A stretch of DNA of 32,000 bases from Wolbachia endosymbiont of Drosophila innubila (GCF_021378375.1 NZ_CP076228.1:270001-302000), one strand, 5' to 3'. Positions 3,633-11,504 are shown, numbered from the stretch's first letter. Notes: a model not told the origin generated them from the letters alone. A program made the numbers and translations.

Positions 3633-4832
3633 ATGTCACTTACCGATATCGCTCACCGTATCAATGAACTCGCTTCATCATGGGAGCAATTTAAATTAAT
3701 AAATGATCGCAAACTAAAAGAAATTGAAAGCAAAGGGCGTGCTGATTCTGCAACAATTGAGCAGCTATGCAAGGTAAATAATGCCATTGATAGTTGCAAA
3801 GAGCGTTTAGACTTGATCGAAACTGCAGCTCAACGCCCAGAAGTAAATACAGATTTTAGCACAAGCGATAAATATTTTTCTGATTATATCCGCAAGGGAA
3901 TGGAAAGCGGTTTATCACACAAAACCCTCAGTGGAGATGACAGTGATATCGGGGGGTATCTAGTTACTCCGCATATTGTAAAACGCATAAACAAGCGCGT
4001 AACTGATTCGTCCCCAATGCGACAAATATGCTCCAGTCAAAGAATCTCTACTGAAACATTGGATTACATTATAGAAGATTTTGACCGCGCCGGTGCAGGT
4101 TGGAGCAGTGAAACAGTAGATGATGAGGACGGTGGCAATAAGTCTAAGTATGATTTTGCAAAAGATACGGACACGCCCAAAATCCAAAAGATTTCCGTCA
4201 CAACTTACGAGTTATATGCTCAACCACAAATATCACAAAAGTTACTCGATGATGCGTTTGTCGATGTTGAGAGTTGGCTGGTGGAAAAGATTGCCGAGAC
4301 TTTTAGTAAGGAAGAAAGCGAAGCCTTCATTAAGGGTGAGGGCACTTTTCAACCAAAAGGAATTTTAGCTTATGAAAATGGAAACAGTTATAATAAAATA
4401 GAGCAAGTTAAAACTGAAAAATTAGATAGTGATTCAATAATGATGTTGTATTACTCTCTGGACGAATATTATTCCAAAAATGCGTCATTTTTGATGAACA
4501 GGAGTACGTTGAAGGATATCAGGCTGCTAAAATCTCAAACAGGTCAGTATCTCTGGCAGCCAAGTCTGTCGCTTGAAGCTCCAGATACTTTAATGGGAAT
4601 ACCAGTATATCAATCTGCCGATATGCCACCAGCGCCAAACAATCAGCTACCAGTAATTGCGATGGCAGATTTCAAACAAGCTTATAAGATTGTAGATAAC
4701 AGAGGAATGAGAATATTAAGAGACCCTTATACGAATAAACCTTATGTGAGGTTTTTTGTCACTAAGCGTGTCGGCGGAGAGGTTGTAAACACCAGTGCTA
4801 TTAAATTGTTGAAAGTTGCGAGCAAGTACTAA
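3633..4832 (+). CDS. HK97-family phage major capsid protein with an N-terminal delta/scaffold-like coiled coil
   Basis: ATG 3633 is preceded by AAGGAGG at 3621-3627. Typical HK97 capsid-family strings are present: FSDYIRKGMESGLSHKTLSG..DIGGYLVTPHIV..RV..SPMRQI and AGAGWSSE. The first ~70 aa are helical and coiled-coil-like, as in delta domains. Confidence 0.85.
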   Translation: MSLTDIAHRINELASSWEQFKLINDRKLKEIESKGRADSATIEQLCKVNNAIDSCKERLDLIETAAQRPEVNTDFSTSDKYFSDYIRKGMESGLSHKTLSGDDSDIGGYLVTPHIVKRINKRVTDSSPMRQICSSQRISTETLDYIIEDFDRAGAGWSSETVDDEDGGNKSKYDFAKDTDTPKIQKISVTTYELYAQPQISQKLLDDAFVDVESWLVEKIAETFSKEESEAFIKGEGTFQPKGILAYENGNSYNKIEQVKTEKLDSDSIMMLYYSLDEYYSKNASFLMNRSTLKDIRLLKSQTGQYLWQPSLSLEAPDTLMGIPVYQSADMPPAPNNQLPVIAMADFKQAYKIVDNRGMRILRDPYTNKPYVRFFVTKRVGGEVVNTSAIKLLKVASKY

Positions 4833-4872
4833 AAACTTCCGCAGCATCATCTTTATAGCTGATCAAAGCAAC

Positions 4873-5060
4873 ACGTCATACCGCGATTCATTCCATAACT
4901 GTACGAACATTGTGATTTTGGCCCATCAGGAGGGTGTCATCCCAGTGCTTGACACATATAGCTAAACTGACTTAGATTTACCGACAGTTTGAAAAACAAA
5001 AATTCGTCATTCCGCTACTTGTTAGCGAAATCTATGCTGAGATATCGCGGCGGTATGACG
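4873..5060. repeat. Cluster of repeat fragments from families 1 and 2
   Basis: Three pieces: 4873-4894 ACGTCATACCGCGATTCATTCC (family-2 half); 4895-4955 ..CTGTACGAACATTGTG..GGTGTCATCCCAGTGCTTGACAC (family-1, truncated); 5005-5060 CGTCATTCCGCTACTTGTTAGCG..GAGATATCGCGGCGGTATGACG (family-2, opposite orientation to the 24805-24864 copy). Confidence 0.8.
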
Positions 5061-5222
5061 TAGGAAAACCTTTCTTGGGTTAGCTATAGTTTGCTATATT
5101 ATGTGATTTTATTTTTAGCATTGCTTCTTACATTATGTAATTTTGTTTTCCATAATGTATATTATGTAATTTTCGATGCTAAGATCTGTTATAGCTCTCA
5201 GTATGATATGAGTGATTCTCTT

Positions 5223-5864
5223 TTAATAATTATTTTTTAAATAATTTGTTGGTTCATCAATTTCTTTAGGATTGATATCTACAATTATTTTTCCGTTTTT
5301 TAACAGAATAATCCGATCTGATATTTTTGTTAAAAAATCCAAATTGTGAGAAGCGATAATCATAGTAATACCCATATCTCTAACTGATTGTAGTAGTTCC
5401 ACAACGTCGACTATTGTTGCTACATCTAAACCAGACGTTGGCTCATCGCATAATAGAATCCTTGGATTCATCATTAAGCTTCTGGCAAGCGCAACCCGCT
5501 GTTTTTGCCCACCGGATAGATTACTAGGGTAATCATTTTTTTTAGAGGCAATACCCAAAGACTCAAGTAGTGAATCACTTTGATCCTGAGTTTTGTTTTT
5601 AAGTTTGGGAGCATATGTAAGATTTTCCCAGACAGTCATATGTGAGAAAAGTTGAAAATCCTGAAATACAAAACCAGTACTATCATTGCATTCAATGCTA
5701 CCAGAATCTAAAACTTCGAGTTTTTGTATACAACGTAACAATGTTGATTTACCACTACCAGAAGGACCAGCAAGACCAACTATAGATTGCTCTATAATCA
5801 GGTTAATATTATTAAGTACTGGAACATTATTAAATAATTTACAAACATTATGCATTTTTATCAT
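5223..5864 (-). CDS. Polar amino-acid ABC transporter, ATP-binding protein
   Basis: Walker A GPSGSGKST, ABC signature LSGGQKQR, Walker B LLCDEPTSGLD. I prefer the start MIKMHNV (ATG at 5864) over the TTG at 5882. It overlaps the permease stop, which suggests an operon. Confidence 0.85.
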   Translation of the reverse strand: MIKMHNVCKLFNNVPVLNNINLIIEQSIVGLAGPSGSGKSTLLRCIQKLEVLDSGSIECNDSTGFVFQDFQLFSHMTVWENLTYAPKLKNKTQDQSDSLLESLGIASKKNDYPSNLSGGQKQRVALARSLMMNPRILLCDEPTSGLDVATIVDVVELLQSVRDMGITMIIASHNLDFLTKISDRIILLKNGKIIVDINPKEIDEPTNYLKNNY

Positions 5865-6495
5865 ATATACCTTTCTGTTCAATCTTTTTGCCTATATATT
5901 CAATTAGTAATACAAGAGCGTAATAATAAGCCCCAGCAAGACAAAGTGGTATAAAATAAGTAAATTGTTCTGCTGCAAGCATTTGCGCAGAGCGCATAAT
6001 ATCAACACCACCAATAGTAGAGATTAATGCCGTTTCTTTAAGGAGTGCAATGATCTCATTTATCATTGCAGGAAGAATATTTTTAATAACTTGTGGTAAT
6101 ATAATATCTCTCCACATATAGAAACTAGGTATTTGTAAAGTTTTAGCTGCTTCAAACTGGTTTTTTGATATAGTTTCAATACCAGCTCGTAAAATCTCAG
6201 CAATATAAGCACAGCTATTTAGACCAAATGCTATAATGCCAGCACTAAATATGTTTAATTTAATTCCTGCAATGGTTGGGGTCATAAAATAAACAACACT
6301 TAACTGTAATATAAGGGGGGTGCCACGTATTACAGATATAATTCCATTAATTAATGGAATACAGATCTTATTATATCTGAGTACTGACAATAATCCCCCT
6401 AGACTCACACCTAAAAGCAGTCCTCCAATCAATAATTTTAAAGTAAAGGCAAGGCCTGTTCCAACAAACAAGAAATTAGAAATTAATTCCTGCAT
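5848..6495 (-). CDS. Polar amino-acid ABC transporter, permease (HisM/GlnP-type)
   Basis: 215-aa polytopic membrane ORF with an EAA-loop-like segment (FEAAKTLQIPSFYMWRDIILPQ). Its start overlaps the stop of the upstream binding-protein gene by 1 nt (TGATG). Confidence 0.85.
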   Translation of the reverse strand: MQELISNFLFVGTGLAFTLKLLIGGLLLGVSLGGLLSVLRYNKICIPLINGIISVIRGTPLILQLSVVYFMTPTIAGIKLNIFSAGIIAFGLNSCAYIAEILRAGIETISKNQFEAAKTLQIPSFYMWRDIILPQVIKNILPAMINEIIALLKETALISTIGGVDIMRSAQMLAAEQFTYFIPLCLAGAYYYALVLLIEYIGKKIEQKGIYDKNA

Positions 6496-10403: not shown

Positions 10404-10729
10404 GGCTTTGTTGCATCGCTAGCTATGATGGATTAAAGATAAAAAAGATAGGGAATATCAGTAGCTTATTATTCTGGTATTTATAACAAGAACGGTCAAT
10501 GAATACCTAAATTTGAGTAAAAGAAATTTCACTACCATTTACCAATCCGGCTAAAATTCAAGAATTTCAATGCTTTAGCTATTTTCAATAGAATTAAATT
10601 TATTAATATAAATAACAAATTACTATTCTTAAATTTGATCAGATTGATTGCAAAAAAACAAGATTTTCAATAGGTTGCTTATAATCCTAACTATAGTTAG
10701 CCTTTCATAAGTAGCGATGCAACAAAGCC
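10404..10729. mobile_element. 326-bp MITE-like non-autonomous element
   Basis: Perfect 18-bp terminal inverted repeats: GGCTTTGTTGCATCGCTA (10404-10421) and TAGCGATGCAACAAAGCC (10712-10729). Flanked by the 9-bp direct repeat ATCCCAGTG (10395-10403 and 10730-10738). The interior is AT-rich with no ORF in the track. Removing the element restores the intact palindrome seen at 3492-3524. Confidence 0.7.
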
Positions 10730-10856
10730 ATCCCAGTGTCAAGCACTGGGATGACAAAAAAAGGAGGCTACTCGGATGACAGGAGAAGGTACTGCCGTCA
10801 TAAAGGAACCAGTTTCAGCTACTTTCATGACATCGTTGTAACATTGTACCATATTA
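10730..10856. repeat. Right half of the interrupted palindrome plus an extended family-1 segment
   Basis: ATCCCAGTGTCAAGCACTGGGATGAC at 10730-10755. It is followed by ..GGCTACTCGGATGACAGG..CAGCTACTTTCATGACATCGTTGTAACATTGTACCATATTACAAT. The tail matches 3517-3554 upstream of the capsid gene. Confidence 0.8.
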
Positions 10857-10902
10857 CAATTTAGCGTTTTTAGTAACTAAGAAAGTGCTTCCCCCTTTTA
10901 GA

Positions 10903-10933
10903 GCACTGCATATAATAGAATTATATGCAGTGC
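10903..10933. promoter_or_regulatory. Perfect 14-bp inverted repeat (hairpin or operator candidate) containing TATAAT
   Basis: GCACTGCATATAAT (10903-10916), AGA, ATTATATGCAGTGC (10920-10933). Lies 38 nt upstream of the prohead protease ATG. The structure is certain; its function is unknown. Confidence 0.4.
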
Positions 10934-10970
10934 ATTGCGAAACAAAATTCCCAATACTACAGGAGGCTTT

Positions 10971-11504
10971 ATGAATAAGAAATTTTTCTATTCACCATTG
11001 TCAATAAAAAGTATAGGAGAAAACGGTGTATTTTCTGGTTATGCGAGCGTTTTTAACATAGTTGATAAACAAAATGATCTGATATTGCCCGGAGCATTTA
11101 AGGAAAATTTAAACAGAAATAAAATAAAACTCCTTTGGCAGCATAATCCTGACGAACCTATAGGTAGTATCATAGATATTTATGAAAATGATGTTGGCCT
11201 GTATATAACCGCACATTTACTTTTGGGTATTCAGAAAGCAGAAGAAGTGTATTTGATGCTCAAAACTGGGGCAATTAACGGACTTTCCATCGGCTATATA
11301 CCTATAGAGTATGATGTTGATCATAAAAGTGGAGCTAGAGTGTTAAAACAAGTGGAATTATGGGAAGTCAGTTTGGTCACTTTTCCTGCAAACTTGGCTA
11401 CTCAGGTAATCAATGTGAAAAATCAGAACAATGAACAGGGAGTGTTAGCAAGAGCGATAGAAAAAGCAAATGCTGTACTTGCAGACATGTACATTTCTGC
11501 TTAA
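10971..11504 (+). CDS. HK97-family phage prohead (maturation) protease
   Basis: ATG 10971 is preceded by AGGAGG at 10961-10966. Family strings are present: FSGYASVFN..D...D.I.PGAF, LLWQHN..EPIG, GLSIGY, and VELWEVSLVTFPAN. Confidence 0.85.
   Translation: MNKKFFYSPLSIKSIGENGVFSGYASVFNIVDKQNDLILPGAFKENLNRNKIKLLWQHNPDEPIGSIIDIYENDVGLYITAHLLLGIQKAEEVYLMLKTGAINGLSIGYIPIEYDVDHKSGARVLKQVELWEVSLVTFPANLATQVINVKNQNNEQGVLARAIEKANAVLADMYISA

Follow-up and report, generated by a model that had tools for sequence, protein, structure and literature searches.

Within a window of 32,000 nucleotides, the genome of the Wolbachia endosymbiont of Drosophila innubila (GCF_021378375.1, NZ_CP076228.1:270001-302000; positions are counted from the first letter of this stretch) carries two genes for head proteins of the HK97 type, a major capsid protein and a prohead protease. 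Both resemble genes of the Rhodobacter capsulatus gene transfer agent (RcGTA). The pair very probably belongs to a vertically inherited, RcGTA-like head gene set whose members are scattered in Rickettsiales genomes, and is neither a prophage nor a recently split pair. The two genes are:

3633..4832, + strand: major capsid protein gene, HK97/RcGTA g5 type, 399 amino acids (aa); PF05065, TIGR01554 and fold match
10971..11504, + strand: prohead (capsid maturation) serine protease gene, S78/RcGTA g4 type, 177 aa; PF04586, TIGR01543 and fold match

The capsid open reading frame (ORF) has no internal stops and matches PF05065 at 1.1e-75 (255 bits; cut-off 24.2) and TIGR01554, major_cap_HK97, at 1.9e-95 (320 bits; cut-off 27.5), the latter over profile positions 3-385 of 385. 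The closest solved structure by sequence is the RcGTA capsid (6tb9, 1.4e-54). An AlphaFold2 (AF2) model gives 6tsu and 6tb9 as top fold matches at approximately 1e-19, followed by the capsid of a capsid-forming phage-inducible chromosomal island (cf-PICI), HK97, T5 and other capsids. Because the confidence of this model is low, with a predicted local distance difference test score (pLDDT) of 59, it was used solely for the fold-level match and for the helical N terminus. The entry 9gyi, which is the second-best PDB match of the capsid, is this cf-PICI capsid and not HK97.

The N-terminal region of the capsid, approximately residues 1-100, is a conserved helical delta domain in which the model places helices at residues 3-34 and 39-67. 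Judging from the alignment, the counterpart of the HK97 maturation cleavage site (K103/S104) probably lies near residues 97-100. An acidic insertion that is specific to Wolbachia, DDEDGGNKSKYDFAKD, occupies residues ~158-175 (nucleotides ~4104-4157), where the capsid aligns with the HK97 E-loop. RcGTA, Rickettsiales bacterium Ac37b and the free-living homologues lack it, and it is shorter in wCfeT and Mesenet.

The protease matches PF04586 (Peptidase_S78) at 5.6e-33 and TIGR01543 at 2e-34. Its residues H58 and S106 align with H65 and S114 of HK97 gp4 and are invariant in alignments of 16 and 40 sequences. These HK97 residues are reportedly catalytic (Duda et al. 2013). A sequence search of the PDB with the protease gave no match, so a fold comparison was used instead. 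In a Foldseek comparison with the PDB, the AF2 model (pLDDT 84.6) matches, at E-values from 2e-5 to 1e-3, the proteases of Epstein-Barr virus, pseudorabies virus, Kaposi's sarcoma-associated herpesvirus and human cytomegalovirus, and T4 gp21 (5jbl). The predicted fold is that of herpesvirus assemblins and T4 gp21.

Each gene has a strong Shine-Dalgarno (SD) sequence, exactly where the original prediction had placed it. For the capsid this is AAGGAGG at 3621-3627, 5 nucleotides ahead of the ATG at 3633, and for the protease AGGAGG at 10961-10966, 4 nucleotides ahead of the ATG at 10971. Both are conserved across supergroups (capsid, AAAGGAGGCTATTATG; protease, AGGAGGCTTTATG). The prediction that both ORFs are full length and intact, with the motifs of their families, is confirmed by the strong profile matches, the dyad and the uninterrupted capsid frame.

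The capsid is approximately 50% identical to homologues of free-living Alphaproteobacteria, whereas its identity to the 477 matching phage records does not exceed 35%. Among the matches listed, Wolbachia appears neither in the organism tallies of capsid-matching phages nor in 25 individual records. Phage WO has a lambda-like head module of gpW, portal, S49 minor capsid C, decoration protein and gpE-type capsid (PMC9203015 S1 Text), unlike the S78 and PF05065 families of the window, which have no phage genes adjoining them. These points together support a cellular, vertically inherited gene transfer agent (GTA) lineage. Vertical inheritance is also indicated by pyrF-capsid synteny that is conserved across supergroups, and by a divergence of GTA genes congruent with the Wolbachia supergroups (PMC9203015 S14 Fig).

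These genes belong to a published set. Distributed GTA genes of Wolbachia comprise major capsid, portal, TIM barrel, head-tail connector, BR0599, prohead protease and terminase genes, and occur in all supergroups but J and L, and in Mesenet, Anaplasma, Ehrlichia and Rickettsia (PMC9203015). The capsid and the prohead protease are both in S7 Table of that study, and the Wolbachia GTA genes are shown in its S13 and S14 Figs. On the tail and adaptor side, the Wolbachia entries of S7 Table are homologues of a head-tail connector, BR0599 (g13) and TIM-barrel (g15) proteins only. The statement in the original prediction that isolated HK97-type head genes are conserved in Anaplasmataceae and distinct from phage WO is supported.

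Gene order and the history of the arrangement

The protease gene lies 6.1 kb 3' of the capsid gene, with six unrelated genes between them, so that capsid precedes protease. This is the reverse of the canonical order, in which the protease gene is directly upstream of its capsid gene. The ABC (ATP-binding cassette) importer, argR, tatC and gap genes, which had been read as lying between the two plus-strand head genes, are confirmed by NCBIfam matches. The features of the interval and its edges are:

3362..3540, no strand assigned: WsnRNA46-type palindromic repeat bordering the conserved capsid block on its upstream side; Rfam RF02625, 87.3 bits on one strand and 85.0 on the other
4847..5222, no strand assigned: non-coding, apparent rearrangement junction with palindromic repeat fragments; similarity to loci L002 and L007 stops at 4846
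5223..9731, no strand assigned: housekeeping block of ABC importer, argR, tatC and gap, also in wMel-like group A genomes L013-L022, composed of the next six genes (NCBIfam matches)
5223-5882, - strand: glnQ-like ABC ATPase of an amino-acid importer
5848-6495, - strand: ABC permease of the importer
6495-7229, - strand: ABC binding protein of the importer
7355-7810, + strand: argR
7864-8625, - strand: tatC
8622-9731, - strand: gap
9732..10867, no strand assigned: variable, repeat-laden non-coding spacer 5' of the protease; strain length comparison
11640..13415, + strand: unannotated ORF 3' of the protease, here in two pieces of 122 aa (11640-12008) and 415 aa (12168-13415); strain comparison

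Adjacent protease and capsid genes in canonical order are found in HK97 and in Ac37b, where head-tail genes follow. In Ehrlichia chaffeensis and Candidatus (Ca.) Mesenet, the protease gene comes directly after the portal gene, and the capsid gene is more than 10 kb away or elsewhere. Wolbachia supergroup B, wFol (supergroup E) and a Tyrophagus strain have the protease as a singleton. The 5' side of the singleton is variable, with insertion sequence (IS) elements, a group II intron or housekeeping genes, and on its 3' side is a conserved large unannotated ORF, then cca in supergroups A, B and E.

The neighborhood of the capsid was surveyed in 12 other Wolbachia species representatives recovered by the capsid. 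The gene pyrF is 5' of the capsid in 10 of the 12, the 10 kb around the capsid contain the ABC-argR-tatC-gap-protease block in none of them, and a different gene (MWKNIKKFF...) follows the capsid in other Wolbachia. The arrangement of the window is shared by nine of ten wMel-like genomes with an identical capsid protein. Across 14.8 kb, the window is 99.8% identical to the complete supergroup A chromosomes L014 (OX366368.1) and L021 (CP170632.1).

Because capsid and protease genes are already apart in Ehrlichia, Ca. Mesenet and the 12 Wolbachia representatives, their uncoupling predates Wolbachia. A simple insertion as the origin of the 6-kb gap was ruled out, since it cannot account for the reversed gene order or for the missing linkage in other lineages. 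This history departs from the original prediction, in which a cognate pair had been split apart by 6 kb. By comparison of the sequences, the 6-kb spacing is instead a secondary juxtaposition at repeat-rich junctions that is specific to the wMel-like lineage of supergroup A. An ancestral cluster of terminase, portal, protease, capsid, adaptor and tail genes very probably broke up before Wolbachia arose, and rearrangement at these junctions then brought the capsid near the protease in reversed order. In a nuclear Wolbachia fossil of Dictyocaulus viviparus (nDv.1.0.scaf02083), the protease and capsid genes are ~8.4 kb apart in canonical order (PMC4046930). This arrangement differs from those of the window and the 12 extant representatives, and may preserve an older state.

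Copies of the WsnRNA46 repeat coincide with the synteny breakpoints. A full copy is located 90 bp 5' of the capsid gene, and homology to L002 begins at 3543, right after it. Homology to other group A strains stops at 4846, which is 14 bp past the capsid stop codon. On the protease side, homology to L013, L016 and L022 restarts at 10868, just past the end of a repeat, and a partial right end of WsnRNA46 is present ~100 bp 5' of the protease gene. The spacer in front of the protease differs in length among close strains, from ~0.5 kb in L013 to 1.25 kb in L014.

The WsnRNA46-type (RF02625) family is spread over the region, at 3362-3540, 8834-8935, 10341-10403 and 10826-10860. The copy at 10341-10403 is sub-threshold and lies inside the spacer. 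The gap gene contains an in-frame insertion of ~35 aa (SSTSFQRVTLESNFWIPVSATRMTSEGTRMTEGYPMSN) at ~8816-8935, which cuts the match to the glyceraldehyde-3-phosphate dehydrogenase profile in two. The insertion, a palindromic repeat within a coding gene, scores 35.7 bits against WsnRNA46, which is below the threshold. The gap genes of sister genomes have similar lengths (362-365 aa), which suggests that they may carry the same insertion.

The unannotated ORF follows the protease gene in every Wolbachia examined and has no Pfam match. Most near-identical strains have it in one piece of 501-595 aa. Elsewhere it measures 444 and 203 aa in supergroup B, where it is in two pieces, 1369 aa in wFol and 684 aa in the Tyrophagus strain.

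Selection and the head genes elsewhere in the genome

Intact copies of the capsid and protease genes are under purifying selection. By pairwise NG86 estimates, the ratio of nonsynonymous to synonymous substitution rates (dN/dS) is 0.05-0.11 for the capsid, a range that excludes one near-identical pair, versus 0.12-0.19 for neighboring pyrF (0.31 in one close pair). For the protease it is 0.08-0.17, versus 0.10-0.13 for neighboring cca. The selection that the original prediction had inferred is therefore real, with values of 0.05-0.17 that are not near 1. The original prediction is also right about domestication, an idea that is not new (PMC9254644, PMC9203015).

Scans with Pfam, NCBIfam or PHROGs, which covered nearly all large non-overlapping ORFs of the window, each against at least one family library, detected no gene for a portal, terminase, tail, lysis or integrase protein in the 32 kb. 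The remaining scanned ORFs encode housekeeping proteins, or ankyrin, OTU (ovarian tumor) and pentapeptide proteins. Searching the 32 kb by tblastn with the portals of Ehrlichia and Mesenet and with ten head-tail-cluster proteins of Ac37b revealed nothing further. Remnants of portal, adaptor or tail genes were likewise absent by tblastn at E < 0.01 from the window, and especially from the 1.2-kb spacer at 9732-10934. The claim that no other phage functions are present holds for the window and fails for the genome, because portal and terminase genes are found elsewhere on the same chromosomes. For the same reason, the capsid and protease are not the stand-alone protease-plus-shell pair that had been proposed.

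The Wolbachia portal gene is another singleton, for which one 90%-identity cluster contains 256 sequences. The portal occurs in most Wolbachia supergroups (PMC9203015), and is retained in the A-group genomes examined here. In wRi and in other draft assemblies with the same portal protein, a large terminase gene is located ~3 kb 5' of the portal gene. The two are on the same strand in canonical order, with two opposite-strand housekeeping genes (LD-carboxypeptidase and lplA-like) between them. The loci compared were L032 (wRi, CP001391), L044 (OZ034715.1) and L045 (OZ034782.1). In OZ034715.1, portal and terminase are ~650 kb from a capsid identical to that of the window (L017). The wRi terminase-portal locus also contains a ParE toxin module.

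Possible roles of the head genes and alternative explanations

In the most likely mechanism, the capsid would assemble, by means of its N-terminal delta domain, around a portal encoded elsewhere. The protease would be co-encapsidated, and its His58/Ser106 dyad would cut ~100 N-terminal residues off the capsid protein. The terminase would then fill a small head.

Several findings weigh against the view that the genes are an inherited, working head set. Most tail genes are reportedly missing in Rickettsiales (PMC9254644), and no particle, capsid cleavage or packaging is known to have been demonstrated for any Wolbachia GTA head. The following lesions disrupt the capsid gene in six of the 12 Wolbachia species representatives; where assemblies are drafts, sequencing error could account for some of the single-base changes:

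L004, wMoz: six stops and a 23-nucleotide deletion
L005, wStri: antisense group II intron (10900-12600)
L008, Cantharis cryptica strain: 896-bp IS insertion
L009, wCori: nonsense mutation at codon 349
L010, wTis: +1 frameshift
L012, metagenome-assembled genome DFT4: heavy decay

Among wMel-like genomes, L043 has a capsid truncated by an IS element and an intact protease, L022 has a nonsense codon in the protease and an intact capsid, and in L017 the protease is missing from its usual place. The terminase is absent at the usual position in OZ034782.1, where IS630 elements are present, and is shortened in OZ034715.1. Also unfavorable is that the regions upstream of the capsid and the protease share no regulatory motif beyond repeat ends and the SD. 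Disabling mutations in sister strains, which the original prediction had itself named as counter-evidence, thus do occur. Because it was inactivated independently in many lineages, the head gene system is dispensable; it is constrained where kept, yet repeatedly lost.

Published particles that package random host DNA and derive from Wolbachia HK97-type genes were not found; the particles described in PMC10299305 reportedly contain a WO-like 15.6-kb sequence. The strain behind those "possible GTA" particles is wStri, whose capsid gene is interrupted by the intron.

One elaboration of the inherited head set, which we regard as rather unlikely, is that where its genes are intact Wolbachia builds a largely tail-less, portal-bearing, protease-matured head that serves a role other than that of a classical GTA. 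More of it would be made under crowding, which is suggested by a wAlbB protease transcript that is up-regulated with cell density (PMC13506747), and dedicated promoter elements would coordinate the scattered genes. Such a head may carry DNA between co-infecting strains, DNA into host cells, or protein cargo. An example of a dedicated promoter element may be the following:

10903..10933, + strand: perfect 14-bp inverted repeat, GCACTGCATATAAT-AGA-ATTATATGCAGTGC, containing a TATAAT at 10911-10916; read from the sequence

This inverted repeat ends 38 nucleotides 5' of the protease ATG, and its block, the sole conserved non-coding feature, is kept by supergroups A and B and in part by E (wFol). 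It may be a promoter or operator of the protease gene. Scans for sigma-70 promoters and terminators around the capsid and protease genes gave nothing beyond shuffled expectation. CtrA boxes (TTAA-N7-TTAA) are not enriched, with 5 sites versus 4.6 expected and none 5' of the capsid, and were not taken as evidence of regulation; a single CtrA-type site is found ~800 bp 5' of the protease. A motif shared upstream of the capsid, protease, portal and terminase genes was also rejected, because the common 8-mers are palindromic-repeat ends and the SD. Upstream matches resembling AGTGCTTCC and TTAACTAC are too short to tell from chance.

Comparably unlikely is that the genes are non-functional relics of a GTA head system that is dead in Wolbachia, with the two genes of the window intact only by chance so far. 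The inactivations described above are frequent, independent and varied (nonsense mutations, a frameshift, IS insertions, multi-hit decay and a group II intron), and the losses are uncoordinated, as L022 and L043 illustrate. In wAlbB, the capsid entry is annotated "part 2" (PMC4046930), which suggests a split gene, while the protease is transcribed (PMC13506747). The missing terminase of OZ034782.1 fits this picture as well. However, the capsid dN/dS across supergroups is below that of adjacent pyrF, the supergroups have all kept a delta domain of full length together with the catalytic dyad and a strong SD, and the genes have been kept since the Rickettsiales ancestor despite genome reduction.

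Still less probable is that the capsid and protease have been repurposed as an encapsulin-like compartment or cargo carrier that packages no DNA, a possibility raised explicitly in PMC9254644, which also reports that most tail genes are missing. The variable loss or truncation of the terminase, and the Wolbachia-specific acidic insertion in the E-loop region of the capsid, would suit such a shell. Against it, the portal is retained, and a portal serves DNA translocation, which a closed compartment does not need. The terminase is likewise retained in wRi and other draft assemblies, and no cargo-like gene adjoins the capsid. Encapsulins are not known to have a delta domain, prohead protease, portal or terminase.

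That the two genes are pieces of a prophage, WO or another, separated by rearrangement or misassembly, is effectively refuted: Wolbachia genomes are rich in WO prophages and IS-mediated rearrangements, mobile repeats flank both genes, and the protease is labeled a WO element in PMC13506747, but the WO head is of another type, no Wolbachia phage is in the phage tallies among the matches listed, no integrase or other phage gene is nearby, nine of ten independent complete genomes have the same arrangement, the genes track the supergroups (PMC9203015 S14 Fig), and their GC content is close to that of the surrounding AT-rich window (GC 0.28-0.43).

Neighboring genes and comparison with known systems

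Other genes of the window include some with phage-like matches. The protein encoded at 138-1544 has a weak match (2.8e-4) to a PHROG tape-measure family, which was dismissed as a likely artefact of its coiled coil, given other weak coiled-coil Pfam matches. A protein with an OTU-like cysteine protease domain (14650-15582, - strand) matches phrog_16592, a phage family without assigned function, at 8.5e-50 and looks effector-like. Near it are ankyrin genes at 17047-18255, 20937-22835 and 26923-27633, and a pentapeptide-repeat gene at 18248-20053.

Why strong purifying selection maintains GTA head genes in obligate endosymbionts, whose genomes are shrinking, is a genuine question. It is relevant to recombination and lateral transfer, and to potential tools for Wolbachia genetics. 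The frequent, independent inactivations provide natural knock-out strains for comparison, and the conserved promoter-like palindrome 5' of the protease offers a tangible starting point for studies of expression.

Encapsulins resemble the system of the window in having an HK97-fold shell protein that is encoded on a cellular chromosome without tail genes. Their cargo genes are adjacent to the shell gene. In contrast, the window's system has a delta domain, a cognate protease and a portal in the genome, and no cargo-like neighbor was found.

HK97 gp4 and gp5 belong to the same two families as the protease and capsid of the window, and share the His/Ser dyad and the logic of the delta domain. The proteases are 30% identical and the capsids 21%, and the window protease lacks the long C-terminal extension of its HK97 counterpart. 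Unlike those of HK97, the genes of the window are neither adjacent nor part of a phage genome.

RcGTA (6TB9/6TSU) includes the closest solved capsid by both sequence and fold, and shares the N-terminal pro-domain, the S78 partner, and portal and terminase families that are present in the Wolbachia genome. It is encoded by one contiguous head-tail cluster of ~15 kb, whereas the window's genes are singletons and have no enrichment of CtrA boxes. A "large cluster" of GTA genes has been defined as at least 9 homologues (Shakya et al. 2017, PMC5721377), and the 32 kb contain only two. Rickettsiales have only small RcGTA-like clusters or singletons according to the same study. Such clusters and singletons are also treated by Lang and Beatty 2007, as cited by Bordenstein and Bordenstein 2022 (PMC9203015), and by George et al. 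2022 (PMC9254644).

The published Wolbachia GTA genes include those of the window, with no essential difference: dispersed in the chromosome and inherited vertically, they are intact, evolve under purifying selection and differ from WO. Head-only GTA sets across Rickettsiales have been described, with purifying selection on capsid, portal, protease and terminase (PMC9254644). That study discusses repurposing and encapsulin-like roles of these heads, and the repurposing idea is also found in PMC9203015. The gene set, the selection and the repurposing idea are therefore already known (PMC9203015, PMC9254644, PMC5721377), and the window re-finds a published gene set rather than opening the question of its retention. 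To this knowledge the present analysis adds the reversed order with its lineage-specific 6-kb juxtaposition, the breakpoints at palindromic repeats, a catalogue of independent inactivations, and the conserved inverted repeat with its TATAAT 5' of the protease gene.

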